Positions 8,562 to 38,922 of a stretch of DNA of 64,000 nucleotides are shown here, one piece after another (position 1 is the stretch's first letter; each line of letters opens with the position of its first letter). The position numbers and the translations under genes were made by a program. The DNA lies in the IMG/VR virus record IMGVR_UViG_3300033463_000093, positions 1 through 64,000 of that record, one strand, 5' to 3'. This DNA comes from a virus (taxonomy: Duplodnaviria; Caudoviricetes). Below the pieces are notes generated by a model. It was not told where the DNA came from. It did no database searches and saw nothing but the letters and a program-made list of their open reading frames with translations.

Positions 8562-8565
8562 ATTA

Positions 8566-20492: not shown

Positions 20493-21668
20493 ATGTTAGT
20501 ACCAAAGATAACATTCGTGTTCGACCGCCGTGGAAAGGCGGACAGGACGCACAAGGGGAGCATCGAGCTCAGGATAACGTGGCAGAGGAAGCAGAAGTTC
20601 ATCTCCACGGGCATCACCGTCTTCCCCAATCAGTGGAAGGGCGGCAACCCGTACGTCTCCGGTTACGAGACGTCAGGCGAGGACAACAGGATGCTCTCCG
20701 CCCTCTGGAGCCGTGCCCACAAGATCGTGTCGGAGCAGGTGGAGAGCGGCGAGATAGACCTCGATGCCATTCCGAGGATGCTCAAGCCCGGCGAGGGCGC
20801 TGGCATCACATTGCTACAGTATATCACCAGGCGCCTTGAAAGGCAGAACGTGCAGGAGTCGACATACCGACAGAAGGTGACGTTCTACAACAAGCTGCAT
20901 GAGTACGGCAGGATAAGGCTCTTCTCCGATGTCTCAGAGAAGGCCGTCCGTGATTTCGACGAGTGGCTGCACGCCTACGAGTGGACCGAGAGCGACAAGT
21001 TCGGCAACGAGGTCAGGAAGAAATACTCGCAGGCCACCATCGGCTCGTTCCACAAGAACCTCAAGGCGTTCATAGCGGATGCCGTCGTCGACGGATACCT
21101 CAAGGAGAACGTGTATGTCGCAAGACGCATCAAGGTGGACAAGGGTACGACGAGGATAGACCAGTACCTGACGGCAGAGGAGATATCCCGCCTGCTTGCC
21201 GCAGACATGCCGACAAAGTCGCTCGCAGAGGCGCGAGACCTGTTCGCCGTACAGATTCTGACGGGCATGGCGTACATAGACCTTATGGAATATGACTTTG
21301 CCAGACTAAAAGACATGGAAGTCGGTTCGGTGTGCCACGGAAGGCGGCGGAAGACTGGTACGGAGTTCGTGTTCGTGTTTACCGAGAAGGCGAGGGACAT
21401 CCTTGAGAGGTACGACTACCTTCTTCCGAAGGTCAGCAACCAGAAGTACAACACGAAGCTGAAGCTTGTGGCCGACGCGGCAGGCATAGACAGGCCGATC
21501 ACGAGCCACGACGGACGCAGGAGCTGCGGTTATGTGCTGCTGAATGCAGGCGTTCCCATCGAGGTGGTCAGCAGGGTTCTCGGACACTCGAGCATCAGCC
21601 AGACGGAACAGGCGTACGCAAGGATACTTGACGAGACGGTGGTAAAGGAAATTGGTAAGGTCATTTAG
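20493..21668 (+). CDS. int: Tyrosine integrase with arm-binding and SAM-like domains
   Basis: Bacteroidota Arm-DNA-bind N-terminus (SIELRITW..KFISTGI); catalytic TGMAY.D, K, HDGRR, LGH, Y. Confidence 0.93.
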   Translation: MLVPKITFVFDRRGKADRTHKGSIELRITWQRKQKFISTGITVFPNQWKGGNPYVSGYETSGEDNRMLSALWSRAHKIVSEQVESGEIDLDAIPRMLKPGEGAGITLLQYITRRLERQNVQESTYRQKVTFYNKLHEYGRIRLFSDVSEKAVRDFDEWLHAYEWTESDKFGNEVRKKYSQATIGSFHKNLKAFIADAVVDGYLKENVYVARRIKVDKGTTRIDQYLTAEEISRLLAADMPTKSLAEARDLFAVQILTGMAYIDLMEYDFARLKDMEVGSVCHGRRRKTGTEFVFVFTEKARDILERYDYLLPKVSNQKYNTKLKLVADAAGIDRPITSHDGRRSCGYVLLNAGVPIEVVSRVLGHSSISQTEQAYARILDETVVKEIGKVI

Positions 21669-22987: not shown

Positions 22988-23100
22988 ATAATATTATTTT
23001 AAATACATGAAAATTCGGTTGTAAAAAGTGAGGCGGAGGGGACTTCACACCCCTCCCGTGGCCGATTCGGACGGCACAGCCCCCAGTGGTGAGACACCGT

Positions 23101-23430: not shown

Positions 23431-23889
23431 TCAGTGCCACTCTGTGTAGCATGCGTCCATGTTGTCCGCCATTGATTCGATGATTTCCTCGATCTCGTCC
23501 TGCGAGAGGTCTTCCTCCTTGCGGCCTTCGCCCTCGTCCTCAAGATAGGAGTCGATGTCTTGCTTGTAGATGCGGTAGCGCCGGAAGTGCTCCATGTCGG
23601 GCACTCCCATTATCTTCATTGCACACTCGTTGCTGCATGCGTATCCGCAGCAGTCGAGATACCATCCCTCCTCCATGATGGCTCCGCAGTTGGAGCATAT
23701 ACGGCACGAATCCACGTCGAGCCATGATATGAGGATTTCCTCACGGGACTTTCTGGATCCTTCCTCGATAGCCTTTTCGACGGCAGGGAAGACGGTTCCG
23801 AAGGCTTCGTCTCCGACAAGCTGTCTGACCTTTTCCTTGATTTCGTCATAGCAATGAGCAGAAACCATTTTGTTAAGTTTTTTTTCCAT
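23431..23889 (-). CDS. Hypothetical protein with Zn-binding Cys cluster
   Basis: CSNCG..CCGYACSNEC. Confidence 0.7.
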   Translation of the reverse strand: MEKKLNKMVSAHCYDEIKEKVRQLVGDEAFGTVFPAVEKAIEEGSRKSREEILISWLDVDSCRICSNCGAIMEEGWYLDCCGYACSNECAMKIMGVPDMEHFRRYRIYKQDIDSYLEDEGEGRKEEDLSQDEIEEIIESMADNMDACYTEWH

Positions 23890-23954
23890 ATTCGTTTATT
23901 TTTTGGGGTTAATGGTATCATCTTCCTGATGTCAGGAAAATGATAAAGAGACTT

Positions 23955-24584
23955 CTACCAGCTCATGATGACGAACATCCTGTCTTTGTCGTCGGTCCAC
24001 TTGTCCAGCATCTCCGCGCACTCGGTGATGATTTTCTTCACCTGATATGTGTAGTATGCCTTGTCGTAGTCCGTTCCTCCGAAGAAGAAACCGCCCTGCG
24101 TCGGAAGTTTTGCATACGAAAAGCCTTCGTCGCGCTGCGACAGCACATCGGTGGCCGTATGGATGAGCGTGATCAGGTCTGACTTGTAGACCTCGCACAT
24201 CTCGTTCTCAAGCCTGTCGCTGAAATAGTTGTAGACGCTGTTCACCTTTCTGAAGTACCCTGCGAGCGGCTTCGAGAACCACTCCCAGTTTATGCTTTCG
24301 TACCATCTCCTTGCCTCCTCGATTGTCTTGGCCTTCTCAAGCGGCTCGAGCTCGAACTCGCAGTCGAAATACTCGCCAAGCAGTTCATGGCGAAGACTCA
24401 TGATCTGGTACTCAGCATTCTTGTCGTCCATCTCGGCAAGCCTGCCCTCGATGAACTCTTTCGTTACCTTTGCGAAGTCCCTGTCCTGTTTTTCGTTCAC
24501 AGACTCATAGTACTTCTCAACACTCTCGTTCTTTCTCATCTTCCGTGGATGATGAATCAACTTGAAATAAATATCCAATCCCAT
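23955..24584 (-). CDS. Hypothetical phage protein
   Basis: MGLDIY..YFRKVNSVYNYF..LPTQGGFFFG..YD..Y..SW pattern recurrent in phages. Confidence 0.75.
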   Translation of the reverse strand: MGLDIYFKLIHHPRKMRKNESVEKYYESVNEKQDRDFAKVTKEFIEGRLAEMDDKNAEYQIMSLRHELLGEYFDCEFELEPLEKAKTIEEARRWYESINWEWFSKPLAGYFRKVNSVYNYFSDRLENEMCEVYKSDLITLIHTATDVLSQRDEGFSYAKLPTQGGFFFGGTDYDKAYYTYQVKKIITECAEMLDKWTDDKDRMFVIMSW

Positions 24585-24661
24585 AATTGTAAAGTTTTTT
24601 AATCGGTCATTTTAAAGAAATAGTTACAAGCCCCCTCATCGTTAAAAAGGTGGTGAAGAGA

Positions 24662-25066
24662 CTAAATGTTAAATGTTTCGCGTAGCCAGTTGTCAAGTTC
24701 GTAAGCGTCGATATGGAATTTCTTCCATGCCTCCCACGACTTTTTGCATCCGTCATAAGCGTCAATACATTCGGATACTTTTTCGAAGCCGAACTCAGCC
24801 TGAAAGTCGTCGATGTTCTTGCAGTTGTCATAATCAATGGCTTCGGACAGGAACATTTCAAACGCCTCTATGAGCTCTTTTCTTACCATCGGCTTGTGCG
24901 TCCTCGTGTTACCCCAGAAATCGAACGTGTAAACGGCCTCGTTTGCTGATACCGTAACTTTAAAGTGCTTCTTTTTGAATCCGTGACTCCACTTAGGGCA
25001 GTCTTCACCTACAAAACGCGCTTTTACGCATATAGGTGTGTCGCTGTAGTTGATGATTGTTGCCAT
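24662..25066 (-). CDS. Hypothetical protein
   Basis: YTFDFW..FLSEA.DY..DDFQAEFGFE. Confidence 0.7.
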   Translation of the reverse strand: MATIINYSDTPICVKARFVGEDCPKWSHGFKKKHFKVTVSANEAVYTFDFWGNTRTHKPMVRKELIEAFEMFLSEAIDYDNCKNIDDFQAEFGFEKVSECIDAYDGCKKSWEAWKKFHIDAYELDNWLRETFNI

Positions 25067-25123
25067 AATATATCTGTTTGGTTAAATAATTGTAAGCCCG
25101 TCGTTTCCGATGGGCTTTGGAGA

Positions 25124-25963
25124 CTAAACGAACCACAGGTTTTTGTCGGAACGCTCGACATAGAAGAGATGCGTGTACGTCTTTCCCGTCACATAGGCGT
25201 TCCATGCCTTGATGACAAGTTTCTGAACGACGAATCCTGGCAGTCTCTTGAGGAGGCTCCTCTTGCTCTCGTTGAGCTTCTGCTGAAGGAGCGTGATGAC
25301 GCTGTGCGACGGATTCTTGAGACCCTCGATCTCGTTGAAGAACGACATGACGGTGTCTTCCGGATGCTTCTTCTCAAGGATGAGGTAGGACGAGATGCCG
25401 CCGATGTCTGAGCCCTTGAGCAGCTTCCATCTTCCCTTTGCAGCAATCTTCGACGATGTCTTCCCGATGTTGTTCCAGAAGTCCTTTTTCGAGTTGAACT
25501 CGTCTTCGATCTCTGCATTCGACGTTCTGTCTGAGCCGGCCATCTCATTCATGACAGTGTAGTTGTTCTTCAGCTTTAAGAACCTGCGTATCGAAGCCGA
25601 GACGAGCGCAGCGTTTGGCACGTCCTGTACATAGAGGATGTCTGCCGCAGTCCTGTTCTTTCCGTTGTCCATGATGATGTAGGACTCGTTTGGCATGTTG
25701 CGGCACACGATGCACGGCATGGGCACGTTCGACCTTACGCAAGCGGTTAGGCGGTGCTGTCCGTTGAGCAGGATGCCGTTCGTGCCGAAGCAGATGGCGT
25801 CGTTGCTGAGAACGAACAGATGGTTCTTCAGCAGCCTCTGATAGAGACTGACTGTTTTCTCGTCAAGTTTCCTGTTCGAGATGTTGTGGGTTAGAAACTC
25901 CTGTGCCATTGATGGCGTTACAAGCATTACCTGCGTGCTGATTCTTTCAAATTCTTTTTCCAT
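25124..25963 (-). CDS. ParB-N-like phage protein
   Basis: VTPSMAQEFL..N..NRKL..LLNGQHRLTA..MDNGKNRT. Confidence 0.7.
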   Translation of the reverse strand: MEKEFERISTQVMLVTPSMAQEFLTHNISNRKLDEKTVSLYQRLLKNHLFVLSNDAICFGTNGILLNGQHRLTACVRSNVPMPCIVCRNMPNESYIIMDNGKNRTAADILYVQDVPNAALVSASIRRFLKLKNNYTVMNEMAGSDRTSNAEIEDEFNSKKDFWNNIGKTSSKIAAKGRWKLLKGSDIGGISSYLILEKKHPEDTVMSFFNEIEGLKNPSHSVITLLQQKLNESKRSLLKRLPGFVVQKLVIKAWNAYVTGKTYTHLFYVERSDKNLWFV

Positions 25964-26017
25964 ACTCTTATAATTTTAGGGGGTTAAACGTAGAGGGCGG
26001 ATGTCCGCCCTAAAAGA

Positions 26018-26620
26018 CTAAGGCTTCAGATGCGCAAACCAGGGAAGGGCGCCCGACCCCCAGGACATGAAGTCAATCCGGTTGTCTCCTGCGATTTTCT
26101 CACAGTCGAGTTCCGTGTCGATTTTGACGTAGTTCGACAGTTCCTCTTCCGAATACGGGACAAACTTCCGAACTCCGTCCACCTCTTTCCACTCTCCACT
26201 CAGATTGTCATCGTTTGTGATGTCATCGAAAGCCTTTCCGTTGAAGAGATACATGGCGTTTTCGTCGTCGCAGCTGACAGCGCACAAGCCCACCTTGCGG
26301 GCCTCGTCAAAGCACTCGCGTAGACGCTTGATGACAACCCGTTGCTCAAGGCTGAGCCGGAAGATGGAGTCGAGAACGACCGTTTTCACGAGCGTGTTCT
26401 TCTTCAGTTTCTCTACCTGCTCGTCGGTCAGATTCTTGTAGACGTGACAGAACCTGTGTTCCGGATAGATCTGCGCAATACCATACATTACAAGGTTGTC
26501 TGCGTCAGGACCGAGGATGTGCCCAAGCAGATTATGCTTGTTGTCGTAGCACTCGAACAGCTCGTTGTCGTTGAGCCATTCGTCTAAATCCTTTTGTGTT
26601 CTGAATTGTAATACTTTCAT
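26018..26620 (-). CDS. Hypothetical protein (200 aa)
   Basis: Start re-called at MKVLQF after an A-rich leader. Confidence 0.65.
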   Translation of the reverse strand: MKVLQFRTQKDLDEWLNDNELFECYDNKHNLLGHILGPDADNLVMYGIAQIYPEHRFCHVYKNLTDEQVEKLKKNTLVKTVVLDSIFRLSLEQRVVIKRLRECFDEARKVGLCAVSCDDENAMYLFNGKAFDDITNDDNLSGEWKEVDGVRKFVPYSEEELSNYVKIDTELDCEKIAGDNRIDFMSWGSGALPWFAHLKP

Positions 26621-26676
26621 ACTCTGTAAAATAAATTGGTGAATAATTGTGCCGTGTCCTTTGCACGGCTTTGAGA

Positions 26677-26823
26677 CTAATGTTTTCTGTTTACAAGCCA
26701 CGGCCACCTGATATAGGCGAGGTAATACACCGCAGCGAAGACAATGATGACGGGGAGAGTCCACACCCCGCAGAAGACGGAGACGAAGAATACCGCCCAG
26801 AGATTCTTGGACAGCTCACTCAT
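26677..26823 (-). CDS. 48-aa membrane peptide
   Basis: MSELSKNLWAVFFVSVFCGVWTLPVIIVFAAVYYLAYIRWPWLVNRKH. Confidence 0.6.
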   Translation of the reverse strand: MSELSKNLWAVFFVSVFCGVWTLPVIIVFAAVYYLAYIRWPWLVNRKH

Positions 26824-27137
26824 GACACGAAACGTTGGAAATTCTCTTTGCGGAAGCTGCGGAACTGCTGCTTCACCGTGTCATAGTAAGTCACCAGCTC
26901 TGGGTTCGGCTCACGATTCGTCGTGTCCTTGATGAGAGGCAGGATAATCTCGTCCTGTAACGTTCCGAAAGCCTGACGAACCGTGCCGTCCTTCTTGACG
27001 AAGTAGAACTCGACGATGCGGCTCTTCATCTGCTTTACACACTCGGCAATCTGCTGTGCCGTAATCTCGCACTCGGCCATAGGTCGGCCAGTGATCTCGT
27101 TGATGCGCTTGGCATCGCTCATTACTTGTGCTGACAT
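26820..27137 (-). CDS. SH3-fold/WYL-like (DUF2693-type) protein
   Basis: VEFYFVKKDGTVRQAFGTL..VTYYDTVKQQFRSFRKENF. Confidence 0.8.
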   Translation of the reverse strand: MSAQVMSDAKRINEITGRPMAECEITAQQIAECVKQMKSRIVEFYFVKKDGTVRQAFGTLQDEIILPLIKDTTNREPNPELVTYYDTVKQQFRSFRKENFQRFVS

Positions 27138-27141
27138 ACGC

Positions 27142-27288
27142 TTAAAATGTAAACATTTTGTTTTTTATTTTAACTAATACATGATACATGTCTTCGAGAA
27201 GTTCTCCGTCACTTAGTCCGGACTCTTCAGGGCACTCAAAGTCTGTCAACACCCTGCAAATTTCATCATACAATTCTTTATTATCCAT
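27142..27288 (-). CDS. 48-aa hypothetical protein
   Basis: MDNKELYDEICRVLTDFECPEESGLSDGELLEDMYHVLVKIKNKMFTF. Confidence 0.55.
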   Translation of the reverse strand: MDNKELYDEICRVLTDFECPEESGLSDGELLEDMYHVLVKIKNKMFTF

Positions 27289-27339
27289 ATCTTTTTAATT
27301 TGGTTAGACAATAGAACTCCCATGGCTGGGAGTTAAAGA

Positions 27340-27556
27340 CTACATGACATAATTGGACAGATAACTTTCCTTGAGATTGTACTTTTCGCACAACTCAACC
27401 AATAGCAGGAACTTTCCTTTTTTGGTCGAGAAGGCCAGAACGTCTTCTGTATTCGGAAATGGCGTTGTCCCTGTTAGTTATCATTTTGTCATACTCGCGA
27501 GAAGATTCGCGATACATTTGATGAATAGAATACTTTGGAATTGAAAACCATGACAT
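27340..27556 (-). pseudogene. Apparently frameshifted small gene
   Basis: ATG at 27556 stops early; a second frame with no start runs from ~27478 to the TAG of the boundary motif. Confidence 0.4.
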
Positions 27557-27612
27557 ACTTTTTCCTTTCTTTTAGGGGTTAATAATTGTGCCCTCACATA
27601 GAGGGCGGAAGA

Positions 27613-28035
27613 CTAACGGTAGACGATTACCATAGACGGAGCAGGCGCAGCGTTCTTCTGACTACCGAACTTCAGACGTCCACGGACAAAACGGATTTCA
27701 GCCTTGCCGTACACATAGTCATGGAACCATGCCGTGTCTGTCCTTGCAAAAACAAGGGCTACGACGGTGGTATTAGATTTCTGCGATTCCTCATAGCATT
27801 TCCTTATCCATGCTCCGACCTTGCGACCATAAGGGGGATTGCAGAATACGACATTACCGCTCCAGTCCTGCACGAGTCCGTCATCATCGGGCGTGTAGAA
27901 TTTGCTACACTTCGCGTTTGACGGCAAAGCGCAGGGGTCGAGGGTGAAATGAAACTCCTCGTTTAGTTTGTCGTAGAAATCCTGTGGCGTCGACCATACC
28001 TCGTCTTTTGACGAGAACATCAAATCTGTATTCAT
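27613..28035 (-). CDS. Phage DNA N6-adenine methyltransferase (Dam-like)
   Basis: WSTPQDFY..FTLDPCA..DGLVQDW..FCNPPYG..RTDTAWFH..FVRGRLKF. Confidence 0.92.
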   Translation of the reverse strand: MNTDLMFSSKDEVWSTPQDFYDKLNEEFHFTLDPCALPSNAKCSKFYTPDDDGLVQDWSGNVVFCNPPYGRKVGAWIRKCYEESQKSNTTVVALVFARTDTAWFHDYVYGKAEIRFVRGRLKFGSQKNAAPAPSMVIVYR

Positions 28036-28117
28036 ACTCCTGAAAATTTTGGTTAGACAATAGAAAGGGCGGGCAGTATCGCTCTGCCTCACCCCAACCA
28101 ACTAAAACTACGAAACA

Positions 28118-28660
28118 TCATTTGATAGCACTGACGATGGTTCTGATGTCGTTGAGCATCAGGGACGGGAGCTGCTTCTCGACAGGAATGTCAAGGTACT
28201 CAATAGCCTCGGGGAACTCCTCCTCAACCTTCTTGACGGTGCGCAGCTGCATGAGGGCGTTGAACACCTTGTCGCGGAAATCATTCCTTTCCTTTATTAA
28301 ATTGTTCTGTTCGTTTCTGACACTTTCGACAGACTCGAAATCCTTTGCATCGACCTTGATGTAGTTGCAGGAATAAGGAACGGGAATGCTTGTCGTGGCG
28401 GGAATGTAGCCGTACACATGCTGATGTCCATCGCTGTCAGTGGTAAGTTTCTGCACAACAGCGTTGTTGTTTGAACCGAGATAGTCGCCATACTCTTTGG
28501 CGCACGCAAGGACAGGCGCAGGAACGTACTTGATGACGAGCTTCGTCACTTTGTCGGTCAACTCCTGGTTTTTTCTCTCGATCTTACTTGAAAAAGCCTT
28601 CTCTGCCATAACGTCGGCTGCATCATAAGCCATCGTCTTTGTAATTCTAATACTTGCCAT
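28118..28660 (-). CDS. Nmad5-like (nucleotide-modification associated domain) protein
   Basis: RITKTMAY..A..V...QLRTVKKVEEEFPEA pattern. Confidence 0.6.
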   Translation of the reverse strand: MASIRITKTMAYDAADVMAEKAFSSKIERKNQELTDKVTKLVIKYVPAPVLACAKEYGDYLGSNNNAVVQKLTTDSDGHQHVYGYIPATTSIPVPYSCNYIKVDAKDFESVESVRNEQNNLIKERNDFRDKVFNALMQLRTVKKVEEEFPEAIEYLDIPVEKQLPSLMLNDIRTIVSAIK

Positions 28661-28717
28661 ATTCTTAAAATTTTTGGGGTTAATAATTGCGGCAGCCGTG
28701 CAAGACTGCCTTAGAGA

Positions 28718-29650
28718 CTAAGCATCAGGATTTTCCTTCTTAAACTTTTTCAGCTCACGGGGAGATGGTTTGAGCGCAATGCATTCGTTTGATTCGTTAC
28801 CGCAGTAGTCGTAGAACGAAATGCCAGTGTCTGTGAGAAGAAGGTCATTGATAGAAGGACAGCTTCCTCCTTGACTTGGACATATATCGTAGCCCATATA
28901 GGCTACGTCGGCATTGTTCAGGGCGTAGACGTTGCCACCATTAGAACGATCCCATATAAACGAGAGACCAGACTCTTTTGCCTTGTCAAAAGCATTCTTG
29001 AGCGCAAGGAGAAGATAAGACTGCTCTTTCGTAGGTCTGAGACGCAGTTCTGTACCTCGCTCTAAAAGTACCTCTCCGTCCTCGTCGATGACCTCGTACT
29101 CGTTGTTGTCATACGCAATCTTTCTGCTTGACCAAAACTCGTCGGGAAGGCTGCCTTCGTCAAGGCTCCAGCTGTAGTCTTTGTTTAAGATTGCAACAAT
29201 CTGAAGCGGAATGCTGATGGCTTGGCCGTTCTCGAATATCCAAGCCTCAAGATAGACGTTGGACGTACCCTTTTCTTCGTCGGGATCGCATACGTGACAG
29301 TTGCATCCACAAAGACGCTTCCTGTCCGCAAGTTTGAGCATATCCAACGTAGAATAATTGTTCTTGTGCATCTGAAGGTTGTTTTCAAAATCAGAGATTG
29401 TAAGATAAAGATTATAGTCTTCTTGAATGACATAATCCTTTCCATAGGCATCCGTTAGACGCGATACAACACTCTGATCCTTCAAGTTGACTACTACTCC
29501 TTCCACTTTTACGTGAACAAGTTTTCCGTCGGAATGAAGATAACCGCAAGTTTCGCATGTGTAGAACGAATACTTCACATTGGGCACTTTTGCCTCGTCG
29601 GCAGAAACTCTCTTGTAAACACTCTTAATTTTGCTTGATTTTTTTACCAT
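28718..29650 (-). CDS. Hypothetical protein (310 aa)
   Basis: Long ORF bounded by boundary elements. Confidence 0.7.
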   Translation of the reverse strand: MVKKSSKIKSVYKRVSADEAKVPNVKYSFYTCETCGYLHSDGKLVHVKVEGVVVNLKDQSVVSRLTDAYGKDYVIQEDYNLYLTISDFENNLQMHKNNYSTLDMLKLADRKRLCGCNCHVCDPDEEKGTSNVYLEAWIFENGQAISIPLQIVAILNKDYSWSLDEGSLPDEFWSSRKIAYDNNEYEVIDEDGEVLLERGTELRLRPTKEQSYLLLALKNAFDKAKESGLSFIWDRSNGGNVYALNNADVAYMGYDICPSQGGSCPSINDLLLTDTGISFYDYCGNESNECIALKPSPRELKKFKKENPDA

Positions 29651-29711
29651 AATTCTTTTATTTTAAAGGGTTAAACATAAATCGTGCCGTGTCCTTTGCA
29701 CGGCTTTAAGA

Positions 29712-29858
29712 CTACTTGGTGTCGTCAATCCATTCCGGCTTGAGCCAGGCGACGAGCACCCAGAAAACTACGGCTGCTATTGCAGCCCAAATCATAAGAG
29801 GGCCCGCGAAGAGCAGGCAGAGAAGAATGAGCCACGCCCATTTTGCAAGTTCTGTCAT
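29712..29858 (-). CDS. 48-aa membrane peptide (probable paralog of 26677..26823)
   Basis: MTELAKWAWLILLCLLFAGPLMIWAAIAAVVFWVLVAWLKPEWIDDTK. Confidence 0.6.
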   Translation of the reverse strand: MTELAKWAWLILLCLLFAGPLMIWAAIAAVVFWVLVAWLKPEWIDDTK

Positions 29859-29919
29859 AAATCAAACGTTATTTGGGGGTTTGGTTAGTTGAAGGAAGGC
29901 CACACGAGGTGGCCGTTCC

Positions 29920-31131
29920 CTAAGAGACTTTCTTCAGGGAGACGCTGTCGAAGGACAGGTCTCCGACGGCGGCGTCGTCATCATCGTCGTCGTTGTTGAG
30001 TCCGTTCCAATACGTCTCGTTGTACAGGGCGTCCTTGACCTCATAGTAGATGTCGGAAATCTGGTTCTCACACTCCCTGGCGGAGAAGCAGATGCACGCC
30101 ATGAACTCGTCCTTGTAGGACGCCATGATGCGGTCCAAGGACAGCGTGGGGTCGATGCCGAGCAGCGTCTCCATGGTGCAGACGTCCTGGTCGTAGTAGC
30201 CTCCGTCGAAGTAGTAGTCCCAGTCGTCTTCATCCCAGTCCGATTGAGACCCTTGTGCCGTCTGGATATACGATGACTTTTGTCCTGTCTGGACGGACGG
30301 CTCTTTGTTTTCTCCGGAATACCATTTGGATCCTCCGAACCAGTGATAGCCATAGCGACCGTAGCCGTAGTCCCAGTCGCCATAGCCACCCTCGAAAGGG
30401 TACACGTCAGTGCACGTCTCCACGATGTGCTCCACGAAGTTAAGGCAGTTCTCGAGCTCGGACAAAACCGTGATCTCCTGGTCGCTGTGCGCCTCGTAGT
30501 AGCCGCACGACAGGTTCAGGCACGAGATGCCGACACCACGATCGACGAGCTCGCCGACGTCCGTGACAGTGCCGTGGTCCTTCTTGTAGCCGTAAGCCTC
30601 GTAGCCGATGGCGTTGATGAAGTCCTCGGAGCATACGCTGCCGCAGAACATGGCGGTGATGAGGTCGCTGCTGCCCTTCCTGTCAGGCTGGACGATGAAC
30701 CGGCAGTCCTTGAAGAACTCAAGGTCCACCTCTCCAGAGCCCTTGCAGCCTATCTCCTCGCCTACGAAGAACGCCACTTTCATCACGTCGAACTTCCTGA
30801 GAAGCTCAAGACAGATGAAGATGCCGTTCTTGTCGTCGGCTCCGAGACCCTGCTGCTCGTGCATCTTCGGGGAGTAGCCTATGACGTCTCCGCCAATCTC
30901 CACGACCGTGAAGTCCTTGGAGTGTGCGTCCTGCACCTGGTCCATGTGTGCTGCCAGGCACGGGTACGTCTTCGACTGTCCCTTCGTGATGAGGAGGTTT
31001 CCGTATGCGTCAGTGACGATCTCTTCTGCCCCGCACTCTGCCGCCACCTTGCGCAGGTAGCGACGCATCTTCTTCTCGCTACCGCTCCTTGAATGGATGC
31101 GGTAGAGCTGGAATAATAATTCTTTGTTCAT
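29920..31131 (-). CDS. Zn-dependent exopeptidase, M28/M20-like, acidic tail
   Basis: AHMDQV, GADDKNG, EEIG, QPDR, YEAH metal ligands. Confidence 0.85.
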   Translation of the reverse strand: MNKELLFQLYRIHSRSGSEKKMRRYLRKVAAECGAEEIVTDAYGNLLITKGQSKTYPCLAAHMDQVQDAHSKDFTVVEIGGDVIGYSPKMHEQQGLGADDKNGIFICLELLRKFDVMKVAFFVGEEIGCKGSGEVDLEFFKDCRFIVQPDRKGSSDLITAMFCGSVCSEDFINAIGYEAYGYKKDHGTVTDVGELVDRGVGISCLNLSCGYYEAHSDQEITVLSELENCLNFVEHIVETCTDVYPFEGGYGDWDYGYGRYGYHWFGGSKWYSGENKEPSVQTGQKSSYIQTAQGSQSDWDEDDWDYYFDGGYYDQDVCTMETLLGIDPTLSLDRIMASYKDEFMACICFSARECENQISDIYYEVKDALYNETYWNGLNNDDDDDDAAVGDLSFDSVSLKKVS

Positions 31132-31193
31132 ATTCGTAAAAATTTAGTTGGTTAGAAAATGTGCGGCACGCCATGCAAGGCATGCCAAAAAGA

Positions 31194-33020
31194 CTAAGCG
31201 GCTTTCGCGATGAACTCCCAGTGTACCGGCTCGCCGTCGTACAGGACCTTGTCAATGACATGAAGCCCGTTGTACTCTGTGGCCATCCTGTACTCGACAA
31301 GATTGTTGAACGATTCGATAGAGATGGAGGATTTGAGGAACCTCTCGAAATAACGATTCCACTCATAAACGGTGATGACGTCATCGGCGTCCTCGAACCA
31401 CTCTCCGTCATAGGCCGACAATACATGGCCGTTGTCCCGGTGCCACTTTTCTTCGGCCTCGTCGAGGCAGTCCCCGCAGCAGTAGGTCTCTCCTGTAAGG
31501 TCTGAGTAGAATCCCTCTCCGTCGACGAAGAACTCTTCGCAGCGGTCGCAGCAGCAGAGGCCGTTTCCTTCCGGATCTTCCGCATTATATCCAGCGTAGA
31601 AATACTCGCCGTTGACCTCAATGCAGTCTTCCTCGAAACACGTCTCCCAATGGTAGCAGCCTCGTCCGTCATAGACACGGGCGTCCGCAACCTGGTGGTG
31701 GTAGAAATAGTCGTCGCGTGTCTCCACATAGTAGGCGTCATCCTCGTAGATGTATTCTTGGTTGTACTCGGACCAGACGTCGCTGCTGTGGTCGTTGAAG
31801 TTGAGCTCGCTGTCCGTGACGTCAAGGTCGATGTCGCCACATCCATAGTTGTCGGCACGCTGAGCGTCGTAGTCGAAGCTCTTGAACGAGTCCTGATAGG
31901 ACAGCGTGTCTCCGTTCTTAAGATGGCAGTCGATCCAGAACATCTTGTCCTCGAGGGAGTTTCCCTCGCAGTCCACGAACATTTTCTTTGCTCCGCAGCT
32001 CGCTCCAACGGCCTTGTGTCCGTCGATGTGCCCGCCCTGTATGAGGGCGGAGACAAGCTGACGCTGCAAGGACGGGTCGCAGGACTTGGAATACTGGCGC
32101 TCTGCCAGCCTCCAGATCCTGTCGCTGCCCACCTCGTGCACCTCGGTAAAGACGATGCAGCGTGCGTAGATCAGGCCGTTCTTGTCAGCCAGGTACGCAG
32201 CCTTCGCCTTCACAGCGTCACGATAGAACGTCCACTGGTCGTCTCCGACCATGCAGGAGCCGAAGCTGCCGGAATCCTCGTCGTAGCCGGCACAGCTGTG
32301 TCGGTCGTAGATGGCCTCGAAGTTGTCGTCGACATGGAGCTCGTATTCCGTGTCTCCGATGCATCTCCTGGCATGGTCTATCCATTCGGCCACGAACTCC
32401 TCGGACATCCACCGGTTTATCTGCTCGGGGAGATTTTCCGTGATGACGTTGCATGACAGGATGTGGTTGAACATCTTGCCCGCCTTCATCTTGAAAACAC
32501 GACCCTTCTCGATGTTGCGGTAGCGGATGGCGTTGAGCGTGCCGTCCTCGCAGAGACCTTCCATAGAGTCGGTCTCGAAGGAGTTGGAATGGAAGTAACG
32601 TCCGTTGAGCTTCAGATAATGGATGGAACCGGGAATCCTCAGCTCTTCATCCTCGAGCAGGCTGTAGACGTAAGTCTTCAGCGTCGGCAGCGTCTTGCAC
32701 GTCAGAGGCGAGAATTTTTCTGAGTAACGATAATGATTGTAACTCATCTGCTCGTTGAGTCTGATGAGAATGCGACCCATAAGTCTCTCGCCGGTAAAAT
32801 TACAATTAGTGTTGCATGACTCCCTGCGCCGCCTGTAGTGTCTCTTCATCTCGGCCAATCCCTGAATGAAAATGTACCTGATGTGAGCCTTGAGGAATCT
32901 CCTGTCCTTGTACAGGGCGAGGAGAATCTTGTTCTTGCGCGACTTGACTCCATTGCCGTGTTCGACAATACCGAATAGTTCCTTGAACTCTTCGTAGTCC
33001 TTAAAACTGTAGTAAAGCAT
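31194..33020 (-). CDS. Large hypothetical protein with C-terminal Zn-finger-like Cys motifs
   Basis: GSCM..YARCIV..LAERQY..LSYQDSF; CDRC..CGDC; start re-called at MLYYSF. Confidence 0.8.
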   Translation of the reverse strand: MLYYSFKDYEEFKELFGIVEHGNGVKSRKNKILLALYKDRRFLKAHIRYIFIQGLAEMKRHYRRRRESCNTNCNFTGERLMGRILIRLNEQMSYNHYRYSEKFSPLTCKTLPTLKTYVYSLLEDEELRIPGSIHYLKLNGRYFHSNSFETDSMEGLCEDGTLNAIRYRNIEKGRVFKMKAGKMFNHILSCNVITENLPEQINRWMSEEFVAEWIDHARRCIGDTEYELHVDDNFEAIYDRHSCAGYDEDSGSFGSCMVGDDQWTFYRDAVKAKAAYLADKNGLIYARCIVFTEVHEVGSDRIWRLAERQYSKSCDPSLQRQLVSALIQGGHIDGHKAVGASCGAKKMFVDCEGNSLEDKMFWIDCHLKNGDTLSYQDSFKSFDYDAQRADNYGCGDIDLDVTDSELNFNDHSSDVWSEYNQEYIYEDDAYYVETRDDYFYHHQVADARVYDGRGCYHWETCFEEDCIEVNGEYFYAGYNAEDPEGNGLCCCDRCEEFFVDGEGFYSDLTGETYCCGDCLDEAEEKWHRDNGHVLSAYDGEWFEDADDVITVYEWNRYFERFLKSSISIESFNNLVEYRMATEYNGLHVIDKVLYDGEPVHWEFIAKAA

Positions 33021-33082
33021 ATAAATCCTTTCTTTTAGTTGGTGAATAATGTTGTCGTGGCTGCACACGCAGCCGTAGAGAC

Positions 33083-33370
33083 TCATCTGGCGTCCGTCTG
33101 GAGAAGACGGAGATCGTAGAGATCGTAGAGATTGTAGAGATTGTCGTCCTCCGTTACGCTGCACGAGAAATGGTACATACTCTCAGTTATGCGCAGGTCT
33201 TTGAACACCTCCTCGTCAGAGTCGGGATCGTCATCCCTCGCCGTACTGAGCGCAAGCTCGCGCTTCTTCTCATAGAACTTTGCAGCGTCCTCCATGTCGA
33301 GGAAGCTGTCGGAAGTCACATACACATCTCCATGAAACACATGGACATAAACTACATTGTACACTTTCAT
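33083..33370 (-). CDS. Hypothetical protein
   Basis: Contains an in-frame 9-nt tandem repeat (NLYNLYDLYDL). Confidence 0.6.
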   Translation of the reverse strand: MKVYNVVYVHVFHGDVYVTSDSFLDMEDAAKFYEKKRELALSTARDDDPDSDEEVFKDLRITESMYHFSCSVTEDDNLYNLYDLYDLRLLQTDAR

Positions 33371-33409
33371 AATTGTAAGAGTTGGTTATTAGCGGAGCCG
33401 TTCGGCTCC

Positions 33410-33547
33410 TCAGAGACTCCTGTACACATTGTACGATACATAAACACATACCGCCGTCACGATCAAGGCAGACACGCATGACGCATAGAGCCATGCAAAC
33501 ACAGACATCGCCACCTCTGGCACTGCCGAGAAAATAATCTTCTTCAT
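33410..33547 (-). CDS. 45-aa membrane peptide
   Basis: MKKIIFSAVPEVAMSVFAWLYASCVSALIVTAVCVYVSYNVYRSL. Confidence 0.55.
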   Translation of the reverse strand: MKKIIFSAVPEVAMSVFAWLYASCVSALIVTAVCVYVSYNVYRSL

Positions 33548-33620
33548 ATCGTTCAATATTGGTTAAAAAGTCAGCACAGGCAGGTGAACGAACGAAAAAC
33601 CCCACCCATGCCGTAAGAGA

Positions 33621-33806
33621 CTAAGCGAACCTGCTCTCGTAGTTCGACACGTTCAGCTTCATGCGACGTGCGAACGCCTGAGCCCATCCACGATAGACAT
33701 AGAGATTGGACACTCTGCGCCAGCGGCCGTCCGAATCGGTCAGCCTGGCCACGCACCATCCACCCTTGTCGTGGACAATCTTGTAGATACCTTTTCCGTA
33801 AATCAT
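33621..33806 (-). CDS. Hypothetical protein
   Basis: Bounded by boundary elements. Confidence 0.65.
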   Translation of the reverse strand: MIYGKGIYKIVHDKGGWCVARLTDSDGRWRRVSNLYVYRGWAQAFARRMKLNVSNYESRFA

Positions 33807-33853
33807 AACAATTCAGGTTGGTTAAACATAGCGGGAGCTTCTGCTCCCTGAGA

Positions 33854-34120
33854 CTAATACTCGATGAGGACGTCTCTCGTCCGCTCGTTGATGAACTTGC
33901 AGTGGGAGATGTCACGGAAGTCGATGCCGATTTCCCGGAAAAACTCCTCGTAGCGGCTTGTCAGCCACGGGCTCTCCTTGAGCATGCGCAGGGCGGTGAA
34001 AAACGTGGTGACTTTCTCGACGGTCATCCTCACAGTCTTGTGAAGGCCGTTCTTCAACGTGACGATACACTTGAAAATTGCGGTCGTCTTCAGTTCCGGA
34101 TTGATAATTCTTTTTCTCAT
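33854..34120 (-). CDS. Hypothetical protein
   Basis: Start re-called at MRKRIIN. Confidence 0.65.
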   Translation of the reverse strand: MRKRIINPELKTTAIFKCIVTLKNGLHKTVRMTVEKVTTFFTALRMLKESPWLTSRYEEFFREIGIDFRDISHCKFINERTRDVLIEY

Positions 34121-34175
34121 AATCGTACTTTTTAGTTGGTGAAACAATCGTACTCCCCAGACGGGGAGCTGGAGA

Positions 34176-34391
34176 CTATCCCTCTGCCATCGTACGCTCG
34201 ATGCGCTCTATCTCCTCGGTGTAGTCGCGCAGGAACTTCCTGCCTCTGTCGGAATCGTTCAGCCAGATGCCGAGCCATACGAAATACACCATACCAGCCG
34301 TGTTTATCCACAGGCTACCCTCGCTGAAGACGGCCACGACGGGCACCACTGCGAGGAACGCACACAAGTGCAGCAAAATTCTCTTTCTCAT
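34176..34391 (-). CDS. Two-TM membrane protein (71 aa)
   Basis: Hydrophobic N-terminal half; first gene of the bounded array. Confidence 0.65.
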   Translation of the reverse strand: MRKRILLHLCAFLAVVPVVAVFSEGSLWINTAGMVYFVWLGIWLNDSDRGRKFLRDYTEEIERIERTMAEG

Positions 34392-35219
34392 AATCGTACT
34401 TTTTTCAAGTTGGTTAAAATTCGTAGACGGGAGCAGGTCTCCCTGACATCCCGCCCGTAGTCTCTCCCACTTCGTTCTTTATCGTACTCGCTTCTCCTGG
34501 GACTCTCCGTTTCCGGACATCTTTGCCCCAACCGTGGGATGTGGCAGTTTTGTGAATCGTACTGCCAAACCATTCTTTATCGTTCGGGTCTTGCACCCTA
34601 AATATCTTTCGTTGCAGCCGTTCTCCGTACTTGCGTACTCGTTCGGCCCGACCATCCTAAAGTGATTAAATGTGTTGTCGTACTCGTCGACGGGAACCAC
34701 CACGACAGAATCGCTCATCTGCCGTACTGCACAGGGCAGTCGTTCTCGGCCAGTAGCCAGCCGTTATTATCGTACTCGCTCACGCGAGGAATAATAGACT
34801 AAAAGAATATGATTTATTCATGATAAGCCCTCGCCGTGCATTCAGCGGGTGGGAATATCCTCTCACGTCACCGGCTAATAAGACTCAGTCGTTCTCTTGC
34901 TCTCGCTCAACGCCTATCCGTTCACCTGACCCACATCTGCATCTTGACTTGCGACCGCTATCTCTCTCTCAGCGCTCCGTTCCGTATCGTACTTGGCTAC
35001 GCATCCTGCGCTGGTCGCCCGTGGCTTCGGTTCGCCGTTCACGGAACACGTCCGTCACGGCTCAGCCTGCGTATCGGCTGCGGCTCCTCCTACTCCGTAC
35101 AGAGTACGTCATCGGTCTCCGCATACGCTCTAACCGCTTGAATGCTGTTCGTCCGGGCTTGCAACCGGCATCCCGAAGGATGGCCACATTACAGGGAGTC
35201 ACACTCCCTGTGCTCTGTG

Positions 35220-36271: not shown

Positions 36272-36279
36272 CAAAGTTA
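36272..36279 (-). promoter_or_regulatory. Early promoter -7 element
   Basis: TAACTTTG on minus with TTG 20 nt upstream. Confidence 0.65.
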
Positions 36280-36874
36280 CGAAAATATTTCGATATTTGC
36301 AATACTTTTGATATATTTATGTCGATATAATTTTCCGGTTTGTACAAAAATATTTATCAAACGTCGACGAAAAGAGTATGAAAAAGTTTTTACAATTAGA
36401 ATATTCTAATTGTAGAATTTTCTAAATAGGAGGGGAAGCGGCGTGCCGGAAAAATTTTGAAAAATGTTTACAATATAGGGTCTGTGTGGGCACACAGAAC
36501 CTATATTATAATATATAATATAGGTGGGCATGTGAAAAATATTTTACAATAAATTTGCTGAAACTGCCTACATACTGGGGTTTTAGAGAATTTCGAAATG
36601 AAAAATCTTTACAAGAAATCTTGTAAAGAAATTTCATAATACGGGGTACACCCCCTTGGGCTGGCACACTTTTTGCGCGCGGTCGCCTCTCGAAAATTTT
36701 TTCCCCCGTTTTTCAACTATAATTAACAGTTATTAACACGATTTTCTACCATGAGTATTATCATACACTCCCTATGTATAATAATTATATGTATAATATA
36801 TATCGTACATATTAAAAATATTTAATTATACTATGTTTTTATAGAAATAGTGTGTGATATTACTGATATTTTCG

Positions 36875-36882: not shown

Positions 36883-37055
36883 CAGGTGTTTTGGTATAAC
36901 GCGATATAAATAGGAACATGCATGCATAAATAAGGGTTTGGGGTTTTGCGGGTTTTTGCTCATGAAAATCTCTGGAAACCTCTGTGTTTATCGGCATTTC
37001 GGGTTCCGGGTTATCGGTCACTCCTTAAAAACCGATCGCTCATATCGCTCACTAA

Positions 37056-38618
37056 TTGTTCCTTTTTGAGTTTTTTGTGAAGGACAGCGGTGTAATAGAC
37101 CAGGTGTTCGGCAGTATTGTCAAGGAGTCGATGGCTGAGTGCTACGACTTTGCCCATCTGCGTGGCCGTTGGGGCTACAGGAGCGGTGACATATACCAGC
37201 AGAACCTGTTGCTGATGAACAAGAACGTGCGTGCGCTGGCCCGTGCCTGTCCCGTTCTGTACGGTGAGGGTGAGTACTGGCTCTTCGACGGCAGGATCTA
37301 CGTCCCCGTGAGGGAGGAGCTTGTCATAGAGGCGTTCTACAGGATGGTGGAGTACCTTGAGATCATGCCTGCCGTGCAGAACAAGGCTCTGGCGAAGGTC
37401 TTCACGGACAACATCAGGTACTACAACCCGATGGTGCAGTCGAGGAACCTGATAGCCTTCGAGAACGGTGTTTTGGACATCAGTCCGATCCTGAGGGGCA
37501 GCAAGCCCGTCTTCCATACGGAGTTCTCCCCGAACTTCCATGTGACGTACTACCACCCGTACAGGTACGACGAGCAGGCGAAGTGCACGAAGTGGCTGAA
37601 CTTCCTGCACGAGGTCCTTCCCGACAAGAACTCGAGGGTCATACTCCAGATGTTCCTCGGCCTCGGTCTCATAGACTCCAGCGAGGTGTACCTGCCCTAT
37701 GAGGGGAAGGATGCCTCGAGGGTCGAGCTGTGCCTCCTGCTCATAGGCAGCGGCGGCAACGGCAAGAGCGTCATCTACAGGACGGCCAGGGGCGTGTACG
37801 GCTCCGAGAGGATCTCCGACGTCCCGTACGTCGAGCTGACGATGACGGGCGACGAGGGCATGAGGGCGAGGCTCCCGCTCAGGCACAAGATCTTCAACTG
37901 GTCCACGGAGGAGGACTCGCGGAACTTCTGTAGGAGGAACACGAGCACCTTCAAGAGGATCGTCTCGGGCGAGCCGGTGATGGACCGCAGGCTCGGCGGG
38001 AACATCACGAAGAACGACAACCTCCCGTACCTCGTGTTCCACCTCAACGAGCTTCCGTACCCGGACGACCAGAGCCTCGGGTTCATCAGGAGGTTGCAGT
38101 TCATAAGCTTCGACGTCACCGTTCCCAAGGAGAGGAGGAACCCGCACCTCGCGCAGGACCTGATAACGAACTACCCCGGCATCTTCAACTGGATCGTCAG
38201 GGGCGCCTGCGACGTGGTGAGGCGGCGCTTCGTGTTCCCTCCCAGCGAGGGGCACCGCAGGCAGCTGCTGCTGACGCAGCTGAGGAGCAACCCCGTCGTG
38301 GCGTGGGTGAACGCCTACGGGCTCAGGTGGGAGATGCGCGCCAAGAACGAGACGTCGGTGTGGATACAGTCGTCGGACATCATGGCGAGCATAGAGGCGT
38401 TCTGCCAGGACAACGAGATGGACGCCCCGTCGGGTCAGAAGGTCGGCGCCACGCTGAACAGGCTCGGCTTCTCCAACAGGCGCAGGTCCGCCGGCAAGGA
38501 GTATCAGGTCTTCGGGTGCACGCCCGACCATATCAGCAGGCCCTTCGTGATCTCCAAGGAGCGCATAGGGCTTGAGTACGTCGAGGAGAAGGGAACGTTC
38601 ATCAGGGAGGACGATTAG
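37056..38618 (+). CDS. Phage/plasmid primase-helicase, D5/P4 family (D5_N + SF3 helicase)
   Basis: NLIAFENGVLDI, Walker A GSGGNGKS, RRLQFISFD; start uncertain. Confidence 0.88.
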   Translation: MFLFEFFVKDSGVIDQVFGSIVKESMAECYDFAHLRGRWGYRSGDIYQQNLLLMNKNVRALARACPVLYGEGEYWLFDGRIYVPVREELVIEAFYRMVEYLEIMPAVQNKALAKVFTDNIRYYNPMVQSRNLIAFENGVLDISPILRGSKPVFHTEFSPNFHVTYYHPYRYDEQAKCTKWLNFLHEVLPDKNSRVILQMFLGLGLIDSSEVYLPYEGKDASRVELCLLLIGSGGNGKSVIYRTARGVYGSERISDVPYVELTMTGDEGMRARLPLRHKIFNWSTEEDSRNFCRRNTSTFKRIVSGEPVMDRRLGGNITKNDNLPYLVFHLNELPYPDDQSLGFIRRLQFISFDVTVPKERRNPHLAQDLITNYPGIFNWIVRGACDVVRRRFVFPPSEGHRRQLLLTQLRSNPVVAWVNAYGLRWEMRAKNETSVWIQSSDIMASIEAFCQDNEMDAPSGQKVGATLNRLGFSNRRRSAGKEYQVFGCTPDHISRPFVISKERIGLEYVEEKGTFIREDD

Positions 38619-38619
38619 C

Positions 38620-38922
38620 ATGGCAAGGAAGAAGAGAAAGATCGTGATGGGGCTTACGCGCCGTGAGGAGGCCGACGTGATCGACTTCATTGACAGGACC
38701 TTCGGCGGTAAGGACGAACGCTTCCGCGCGGAGCAGTGGATGGCCGCCGGCTACTATATCGTGCTGGCGGCGATGAAGATGCTGGTCAGGCAGGGGGTGA
38801 CGCTGCCCGACGCATACAAGGTCGCCTGTGACGGCTTCGGGGACCTCTTCGAGTACGTCATGGCCGACTTCGGCGAGTTCAGGGACCTTTATGTGAGCTG
38901 TCTTAACGGTGATGCGTCATGA
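38620..38922 (+). CDS. Hypothetical protein
   Basis: Start re-called at MARKKR, 1 nt after the primase stop. Confidence 0.6.
   Translation: MARKKRKIVMGLTRREEADVIDFIDRTFGGKDERFRAEQWMAAGYYIVLAAMKMLVRQGVTLPDAYKVACDGFGDLFEYVMADFGEFRDLYVSCLNGDAS

Follow-up and report, generated by a model that had tools for sequence, protein, structure and literature searches.

A standard spacer separates the genes of an accessory array

The stretch analysed here, called the window, is the first 64 kb (positions 1 to 64,000) of the IMG/VR virus record IMGVR_UViG_3300033463_000093, a 72,098-bp single-contig phage genome. In an 11-kb block of the window, about 20 accessory genes, all encoded on the minus strand, are set apart from one another by one standard spacer made of a motif at the stop codon, an RNA hairpin, the sequence TTAACC (the core) and a short leader. 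Genes within this array include a 71-aa gene, a 608-aa gene, an M42-peptidase-like gene, an Nmad5 gene and a Dam methylase gene. Bacteroidales phages, to which this one appears to belong (see below), make up a large share of the gut and rumen virome and, to our knowledge, almost nothing is known about how they express and exchange their accessory genes.

By searching for the composite motif AGTCT-N15-60-(YTAACC/TTCACC/ATAACC), with the minus strand as the sense strand of the array, we found 15 composites on that strand of positions 23800-34900 (the sites span 23.9-34.2 kb), against a mean of 0.34 (standard deviation 0.62, maximum 3) in 300 dinucleotide shuffles. No antisense composite was found in the array block, and of the four composites found on both strands of the remaining 61 kb none is intergenic. 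The 19 intergenic (T/C)TAACC-like cores that precede an ATG by 13-24 nt are all inside the array block, and 13 of the 30 matches to AGACTA on the plus strand of the window fall in 24659-34801. A hairpin was present at all 16 sites that were folded, with a mean z-score of -2.2 compared to shuffles. According to a crude call of open reading frames (ORFs), 12 of 18 array genes end with TAG, compared to 21 of 95 genes elsewhere. Recoding of TAG was rejected since a search of the phage for a suppressor tRNA found none, tRNA-Ala being the only tRNA seen.

Thus, the array of TAGTCT-hairpin-TTAACC elements that had been proposed from the bare sequence (the sequence-only reading) is real. The element is also not one that sits at ordinary gene ends throughout the genome, as the 72 kb hold no intergenic composite outside the array. 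Some individual sites had to be revised. For the site at 33623, the true core is the TTAACC given in Table 1. The junction at 24664 does have TAGTCT but no convincing hairpin or core, and we consider it degenerate instead of a full site. A further module, a hairpin followed by CTAACC without AGTCT at 28056, is present in addition. Finally, the TAG at 27342 had been taken for the stop of a 53-aa ORF, but this ORF ends at a TGA (27395) and the TAG closes the +1 frame. The corresponding gene (27340-27556, minus strand) changes frame within an A6 run (CCAAAAAAGG) and is thereby split; past this run, the +1 frame reaches the TAG of TAGTCT at 27342. Because the motif closes the +1 frame past the annotated TGA, the gene appears to be frameshifted, and the frame change could be a sequencing error, a pseudogene or a programmed slippage.

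Two rigid halves and a hairpin selected on the mRNA strand

The anatomy of the spacer, called the connector below, was parsed from about 250 non-redundant elements of the window and of its relatives. The connector consists of two rigid halves and a variable linker, mostly of 3-8 nt, between hairpin and core. In the 3' half, which belongs to the upstream gene, the stop codon overlaps or abuts GYCU (TAG-TCT, TAA-GTCT or TGA-GTCT) and the stem begins 2-4 nt further on. In the 5' half, which belongs to the downstream gene, AACC is invariant within (T/C)TAACC(A/C) and is followed by an A-rich leader of 13-18 nt devoid of Shine-Dalgarno sequence (cores of the window sit 13-24 nt 5' of the next ATG). 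The adenines of the leader are found at -3, -6 and -11 to -13, a pattern that resembles the Kozak-like start context, lacking a Shine-Dalgarno sequence, of Bacteroidota. In four more distant phages (L013, L020, L031 and L036; L numbers designate loci of relatives), the M42-like gene is preceded by a TTAACC core and an A-rich leader coming straight after the stop codon, with no hairpin. The 5' half thus does not depend on the presence of the 3' half.

The stems are 5-13 bp long and unrelated in sequence. Since neither sequences nor lengths of the hairpins are related, regular-expression searches and stem statistics were used instead of the covariance model that had been suggested. First, the isolated interior mismatches of 230 stems comprised 54 G.U pairs as read on the sense strand versus 16 A.C (p = 6e-6). 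Second, GNRA or UNCG tetraloops were found 20 times on the sense strand and 6 times on the antisense strand (p = 0.009). Third, at the orthologous junction upstream of the M42-like gene, a 9-bp stem is conserved across lineages with double compensatory changes in 6 of its 9 pairs, sense-strand U.G pairs and a conserved UUGCAU loop. In addition, the fold of connector 3 has a minimum free energy of -19.7 on the sense strand versus -9.0 on the antisense strand. The mismatches, the tetraloops and the orthologous stem together indicate that the hairpins are selected on the mRNA-sense strand.

Some loops recur independently of their stems. UUGCAU or UUGCAC was found on unrelated stems in 18 of 288 hairpins (in the window at 31164-31187 and 28690-28710 on the minus strand, and in many relatives), and the loop CAAAGGA follows unrelated genes in the window, L001 and L002. 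This suggests either that some loops have a function of their own or that hairpin modules move independently of genes.

We searched for known counterparts of the connector. No Rfam family matches it, and a literature search for TTAACC or stem-loop motifs in Bacteroides phages returned nothing relevant. A box closing all three reading frames was rejected as too weak, with at least two frames stopped in 17% of group-A arms versus 10% of shuffles and in 28% versus 12% for group B (groups as defined below). A hammerhead-type reading of the GUC of the arm was also discarded, no CUGAUGA/GAAA core being visible in the leader sequence. TTAACC is not a host signal either, since TTAACC-N13-18-ATG occurs 52-77 times per genome in four Prevotella/Bacteroidales genomes compared to 46-104 times for the backwards pattern. 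Hence, either a phage-specific reader recognises the core, or the core is maintained for another reason.

The module is conserved among relatives of a temperate Bacteroidales phage

Loci of relatives were fetched with the 608-aa protein, the tyrosine recombinase encoded beyond the end of the array and the M42-peptidase-like protein. The nearest relatives are rumen contigs, in which these proteins are respectively 48-49%, 38-61% and 53-71% identical to those of the window and which carry 5-18 composite sites per locus, all on the gene strand. Counted by architecture, these relatives have 10-18 sites at each locus. We refer to the window-type rumen arrays with UAGUCUY arms as group A, and to arrays differing in the 5' arm as group B. 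Human-gut contigs, which form a larger set, have kept hairpin, core and leader as well as GAATTATG, and their 5' arm is AGCCT(A/G)AA instead. The module with the AGCCTRAA arm was also found in prophages of Prevotella and Bacteroidaceae metagenome-assembled genomes (MAGs). As the human-gut set keeps the core but has another arm, the core is deeply conserved, the 5' arm is lineage-specific and the two do not covary. The array had no megablast match in the phage collection, and the sole DNA recovered in looking for further close relatives of the window was 100% identical to it. Among cultured relatives, Cellulophaga phage phi38:1 also has the peptidase and, going by its annotation (its sequence was not scanned for the module), its genes are tightly packed.

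Outside the array, the genome encodes a tape-measure protein, a large terminase, a portal and a major head protein, together with an arm-type integrase (20493-21668, plus strand) that is distinct from the second, shorter tyrosine recombinase mentioned above. It also encodes a CI-like repressor (19253-20212, plus strand), next to which a lytic operon runs from 19.2 to 5 kb, apart from the array that the sequence-only reading had called early, and a Sak (Rad52-type) single-strand annealing protein (16296-17045, minus strand). Prophage-like stretches of relatives were found in Prevotella and Bacteroidaceae rumen MAGs. Given the integrase, the CI-like repressor, the head and tail genes, the Bacteroidota promoters described below and the relatives in rumen MAGs, the phage is, as judged from its genes, a temperate siphophage of Prevotella/Bacteroidales.

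An inverted arm heads the group-A arrays

The sequence-only reading had pointed to an inverted copy of TAGTCT at 34458. This copy does lie beside a hairpin but is not isolated, since it belongs to a head element, GGAGAGACUA-hairpin-TTAACC, found in six lineages (the window, L001, L004, L007, L010 and L093). In every group-A array, (G)GAGAGACUA is located directly 5' of the first hairpin-TTAACC, at 34458-34466 (minus strand) in the window and at L001:8607, L004:942, L007:7652, L010:7117 and L093:6711. The head is the first counted element in L001, L004 and L007, and one element precedes it in L010. GAGAGACUA is the reverse complement of the UAGUCUY(Y) arms and, with G.U pairs, fits both their C and U versions. 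It may serve as a pairing partner in the RNA or as an inverted site in the DNA. No group-B counterpart of this GAGACUA head complement was found.

In the window, the mostly non-coding leader upstream of and around the head (34120-35100, minus strand) is dense in (A)GTACGA(T) repeats. The same AGTACGAT(A/T)AT is also found in 3' hairpin halves or linkers of the first connectors of rumen and human-gut relatives (for example at L002:7297, L050:6373, L039:4829 and L022:4588), and this repeat may be a protein-binding motif. At 34480-34545 (minus strand), upstream of the head, there is a small conserved RNA-like structure of two stems, in which an outer stem and AAAGA are followed by an inner hairpin closed by a GNRA loop. 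It has counterparts at L093 ~6640-6700 and L001 ~8540-8600, with stems varying by lineage, and gave no match in Rfam.

The array is probably a single operon with ribozymes in its leader

Canonical TAnnTTTG promoters with a TTG or TTTG at -33 mark the operon starts of this phage. The pair at 36.3 kb contains the only host-type promoter boxes on the minus strand upstream of the array, and no TAnnTTTG box was found on this strand between 36279 and 22987, hence none in any connector. The promoter at 22987 is the next one past the terminator at 23.05 kb. Canonical T-run terminators of the unit were found at 35.78, 28.07 and 23.05 kb. Because there is no host-type promoter inside it, the array is probably one operon running from around 36.3 kb to the 23.05-kb terminator, that is, promoterless cassettes of a single orientation behind a common promoter.

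In the operon leader, we found a 129-aa gene and a strong terminator, as well as two twister ribozymes and 0.75 kb of sequence in which GTACGA repeats abound. The P5-type twister scored 46.9 bits, above its gathering score of 37.6, while the P1-type scored 49.5 bits (E 6e-10), below its gathering score of 67.2. Five group-A relatives also have sense-strand twisters, located 0.4-1 kb before the head of the array, with P5-type counterparts in L002 and L093 and P1-type counterparts in L001, L002, L093, L006 and L007. None was found in three group-B loci.

Upstream of the promoter pair, a 559-aa minus-strand ORF (37011-38690) was rejected as an antisense artefact, the true gene being on the plus strand (37056-38615) and encoding a D5_N/DUF5906 helicase-primase. 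The AT-rich 36.3-37.0 kb region is accordingly read from the gene layout as a divergent promoter and control region, and is possibly an origin too. Within the array, the variant connector with TTTTAGTTGGTTGGGG also occurs in L001, L002, L004, L006 and L093. In the window copy (28051-28118), pairing is conceivable between GGUUGG and the CUAACC core that closely follows it, and might hide the start region of the Dam methylase gene.

Table 1. Connectors of the array and features of its flanks (positions in the window)
Feature	Position	Strand	Description
Two host-type Bacteroidota promoters	36272..36359	-	TAACTTTG with -33 TTG at 36279; TATTTTTG at 36352
Twister ribozyme, type P1	35679..35744	-	Array leader; Rfam covariance model
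Twister ribozyme, type P5	35153..35219	-	Array leader; Rfam covariance model
Gene-less leader site	34776..34801	-	TAGTCT and hairpin CTCGC-GTGA-GCGAG, then ATAACGG instead of core
Head element	34412..34466	-	GAGAGACTA (AGACTA 34463-34458), hairpin, TTAACC 34417-34412, 20-nt leader, ATG 34391
Connector 1	34138..34178	-	TAGTCT, stop of 71-aa gene; hairpin GCTCCCC/GGGGAGT; TTCACC
Connector 2	33820..33856	-	TAGTCT; hairpin GGGAGC-AGAA-GCTCCC; TTAACC
Connector 3	33561..33623	-	TAGTCT; long 13-bp G.U-rich hairpin; TTAACC 33566-33561
Connector 4	33384..33418	-	AGTCT within final codons, stop TGA; hairpin GGAGCCG/CGGCTCC; ATAACC
Connector 5	33041..33085	-	TGA-GTCT; hairpin GGCTGC-GTGT-GCAGCC; TTCACC
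Connector 6	31150..31196	-	Junction of 608-aa and M42-peptidase-like genes; TAGTCT; 9-bp hairpin, UUGCAU loop; CTAACC
Connector 7	29883..29929	-	AGTCT within final codons, stop TAG 29922-29920; hairpin GGCCAC/GTGGCC; CTAACC
Connector 8	29669..29714	-	TAGTCT; hairpin GCCGTG-CAAAGGA-CACGGC, identical to that of the 26638..26679 connector; TTAACC
Connector 9	28678..28720	-	TAGTCT; hairpin GGCAGTC-TTGCAC-GGCTGCC with U.G pair; TTAACC
Variant connector, after Nmad5 gene	28051..28118	-	No AGTCT; TTTTAGTTGGTTGGGG, long hairpin, T-rich terminator-like tail, CTAACC
Connector 10, after Dam methylase gene	27577..27615	-	TAGTCT; hairpin GCCCTC/GAGGGC; TTAACC
Connector 11	27302..27342	-	TAGTCT; hairpin AACTCCCA/TGGGAGTT; CTAACC; TAG closes +1 frame of 27556 gene
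Connector	26638..26679	-	TAGTCT; hairpin GCCGTG-CAAAGGA-CACGGC; TTCACC
Connector	25982..26020	-	TAGTCT; hairpin AGGGCGG/CCGCCCT; TTAACC
Connector	25080..25126	-	TAGTCT; 10-bp hairpin, GAAA loop, one A.C mismatch; TTAACC
Degenerate junction	24585..24664	-	TAGTCT stop; clear hairpin and core lacking
Last connector	23907..23953	-	AGTCT 3 nt past stop; 13-bp hairpin; TTAACC
Terminator closing the array unit	23030..23080	-	Canonical hairpin and T-run
Orphan tyrosine recombinase, 318 aa	22015..22971	-	Own TAAATTTG promoter; syntenic with arrays in relatives

Cassettes are exchanged at the conserved blocks of the connector

By comparing the window with two relatives, we found about nine common genes in constant order, the other slots being occupied by unrelated genes. 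We then used all-against-all blastn of the loci, with random positions as control. First, 38% of internal homology end points fell within -70 to +40 of a core, compared to 11% for random positions. Second, at gene-sized replacements or indels, homology resumed at the core in 22% of cases (2.8% expected) and at the 5' arm in 11.5% (4.9% expected), and it ended in the leader or start block in 19% (3.5% expected). Third, we aligned three ways 11 precise indel events between close relatives. In six of them, the copy at the junction resembles the upstream element as far as the core and switches there to the downstream element, with a shared identity of 7-12 nt, while in two others the switch lies inside the GAATTATGA start block. 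In another event, only the leader and the ORF were swapped, between an intact core and an intact 5' arm. In the window itself, two genes for 48-aa membrane peptides are about 45% identical, whereas their arm and hairpin (the 29.7-kb and 26638..26679 copies) are identical at 31 of 33 positions.

Thus, the conserved blocks of the connectors act as recombination joints. The cassette-like organisation suspected from the window alone holds, with variable gene content between modules, breakpoints enriched 3-8 fold on the module and indel crossovers in TTAACC. The comparison of gene order among relatives, which had been proposed as a check, gave a mixed outcome, in that breakpoints do pile up on the module but shared genes are collinear and never shuffled. 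As the crossovers are spread over several short shared blocks, they point to short-block recombination and not to a single enzymatic cleavage point.

These results also bear on the proposal of an integron-like, recombinase-driven array. The best pairing between the two arms is 3.6 nt, compared to 3.7 nt for random sequences, so that the complementarity of attC sites is lacking. A search of the 11-kb array for an RYYYAAC...GTTRRRY pair gave a single match, inside a gene. The 318-aa recombinase has only weak, generic Xer-like matches (42 bits for a cut-off of 220) and does not match the integron-integrase (IntI) models. Instead of the single crossover point shared by attC sites, we found six events in the core and two in the start-codon block, with block boundaries also at the 5' arm. 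With arms that are not complementary, no integron-type integrase, more than one crossover block and no shuffling of genes, the spacers are not integron sites.

Discussion

The element described here is real, specific and widespread in a clade of Bacteroidales phages. We propose that the elements would be the standard intercistronic connectors of an accessory-gene operon of about 11 kb. The transcript would start at the host-type promoters around 36.3 kb and its leader would be cut by the twister ribozymes. In this transcript, the hairpin would punctuate and insulate the cistrons, as a 3' stabiliser, a weak attenuator or a barrier that keeps the coding RNA upstream apart from the following start region, and core and leader would supply each cassette with an identical start region. 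These roles of the hairpin and of both arms in the RNA, and of a factor that reads them, are inferred. In the DNA, the few invariant blocks are the sole homology between otherwise unrelated cassettes, and it is at these blocks that short-homology recombination deletes, inserts or replaces cassettes. The phage encodes a Sak/Rad52-type annealing protein. We give this combination of RNA punctuation, standard leader and short-homology joint about an even chance of being correct.

The closest known system is the promoter-early stem-loop (PeSL), the mobile regulatory cassettes of T4-type phages (Arbiol et al. 2010, PMC2839356), of which the connector would be the Bacteroidales counterpart. As with PeSLs, a repeated intergenic module fills the space between the stop codon of a small accessory gene and the start of the gene that follows. 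It includes a stem-loop in which G-T pairs occur, is found mainly where ORFans form a hyperplastic region, and mediates indels and replacements between relatives by recombination between modules. PeSLs are characterised by a host sigma-type early promoter in each motif and by excised mini-circles. In contrast, the connectors have no host-consensus promoter and their conserved parts are the GYCU and TTAACC arms. They form one operon-like array headed by twisters and beside an orphan recombinase, in a temperate phage of a Bacteroidales host.

Several observations weigh against this proposal. The core is not a host expression signal, and the model names no reader for the strictly invariant AACC and GYCU. 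Nor does it account for the conserved inverted GAGAGACUA that heads the group-A arrays. A tyrosine recombinase co-occurs with the arrays, which is compatible with a site-specific mechanism. Finally, BLAST end points are partly biased toward conserved blocks, and all the precise indels come from group-B relatives and none from the lineage of the window, whose only other copy is 100% identical.

The first alternative is that the connector is a dedicated RNA-processing signal, its arms being the sites of a sequence-specific endoribonuclease, phage-encoded or guided, that cuts the ribozyme-headed polycistronic transcript into monocistronic units capped by hairpins. The leader of group-A arrays ends with the purine-rich GAGAGACUA, a possible guide for the UAGUCUY(Y) arms or their partner in long-range pairing, and it is complementary to these pyrimidine-rich arms over 7-9 nt including G.U pairs. 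We judge this alternative unlikely, although it is somewhat strengthened by the location of the hairpin signatures on the RNA-sense strand and by the two self-cleaving twisters in the same leader, conserved upstream of group-A arrays (the window, L001, L002, L093, L006 and L007). In addition, a core that is not a host signal calls for a specific reader. On the other hand, no nuclease or RNA-binding protein was identified among the conserved neighbours, the element has no Rfam family, and in group B the arrays lack ribozymes as well as any obvious sequence complementary to their arm. The hairpins that RNase III processes in T7 and T3 also stand between consecutive (early) genes of a long transcript, where stable 3' hairpin ends and a role at the RNA level are likewise expected. 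However, most stems here, at 5-13 bp, are too short for RNase III, whose sites of the T7 type are double-stranded over at least some 20 bp and have an internal loop; moreover, they are flanked on both sides by conserved single-stranded arms, and the host is another one. A version of this alternative that would join processing and exchange is, in our view, similarly improbable. In it, GYCU-hairpin-TTAACC would be recognised by a phage factor that cleaves the twister-headed RNA of the operon, leaving single-gene messages each capped by a hairpin, the same signals doubling as exchange joints. This factor could be a protein or, in the rumen lineage, GAGAGACUA of the leader acting as an antisense guide to the UAGUCUY arms.

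Less probable again is a site-specific system other than attC, in which the orphan recombinase would recognise the connector, with TTAACC as crossover or overlap region. Cassettes would be excised, inserted or inverted by it, and the inverted copy of TAGTCT in the head would be the terminal site of the array. Nearly all loci that bear the element and have enough flank end, past the array and on its strand, with a homologue of this recombinase (in three further records it is located elsewhere). A crude count shows this gene to be much more frequent in such loci than in those free of the element, where it is rare. This co-occurrence leaves room for a role other than at attC sites, but may simply reflect common lineage, as lineage and function are not separable by this comparison. 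A separate, arm-type integrase serves lysogeny, most precise indels cross over within the invariant core, and this core is invariant though not a host signal. Nevertheless, the crossovers in the start-codon block and the many boundaries at the 5' arm leave no single cleavage point, shared genes are strictly collinear, the core is not flanked by inverted binding arms, and the hairpin signatures (tetraloops and G.U pairs) are those of RNA. The generic matches of the recombinase and the missing attC features reported above also argue against it.

The attC sites of integrons are themselves instructive. They are roughly 55-140 nt long, whereas the module here is shorter (35-47 nt). Like attC arrays, including the attC clusters of phages (Qi et al. 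2023, PMC9892861), the connectors join promoterless cassettes of the same orientation behind a common promoter, with a tyrosine recombinase adjoining the array, combine a short conserved sequence at the stop codon with a variable, strand-specific hairpin, and undergo gain and loss at the level of cassettes. They differ in having arms that do not form complementary R''/R' boxes, a recombinase unlike IntI, crossovers spread over more than one block and an unshuffled gene order.

We consider it quite improbable, and the weakest of these alternatives, that connectors are terminator-promoter pairs in the literal sense of PeSLs or morons, the hairpin terminating transcription and TTAACC being part of a promoter for a modified host RNA polymerase, so that each cassette would be a unit of its own. 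The fixed distance of 13-18 nt between core and ATG would suit a short-leader transcription start, the core also occurs free of a hairpin at some junctions of more distant phages (L013, L020, L031 and L036), and a few hairpins pass a simple terminator scan. However, an intrinsic terminator has a G+C-rich hairpin followed immediately by a U-tract, whereas the 8 nt after the stems contain on average 40% T and at least 5 T out of 8 in only 11% of 254 elements, so that most connectors are not canonical terminators. Moreover, no connector has TAnnTTTG with a TTTG at -33, though other operon starts of the phage do, and host genomes make no use of TTAACC. The proteins that were scanned included neither a phage RNA polymerase nor a sigma factor; a 2179-aa protein considered as a phage RNA polymerase is a tape measure, and the large ORF upstream is the antisense artefact described above. 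Lambdoid morons resemble the cassettes in being independently acquired accessory genes with flanking signals of their own near the integrase end of a temperate phage, but a moron has its own promoter and terminator, whereas the cassettes share a sequence-conserved connector and probably one promoter. REP/BIME elements are also hairpins just past stop codons inside operons, with a short conserved 5' motif. Their stems are conserved in sequence and linked to RAYT transposases, whereas only the flanks are conserved here and there is no Y1 transposase.

The module is a simple, searchable signature that delimits accessory cassettes in dozens of uncultured phage contigs, predicts true gene ends, as with the frameshifted gene that it exposed, and marks sites of gene swapping between phages. 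The conserved twisters at the operon head give these ribozymes a concrete biological context, and the connector could provide standard intercistronic parts for synthetic biology in Bacteroides. As the arms are not host signals, finding their reader could bring to light an activity that is new to Bacteroidota, in RNA processing or in recombination. The idea that phage modules are bounded by conserved "linker" sequences has long been debated in relation to mosaicism, and the module of these Bacteroidales phages may be a rare natural case of such linkers.

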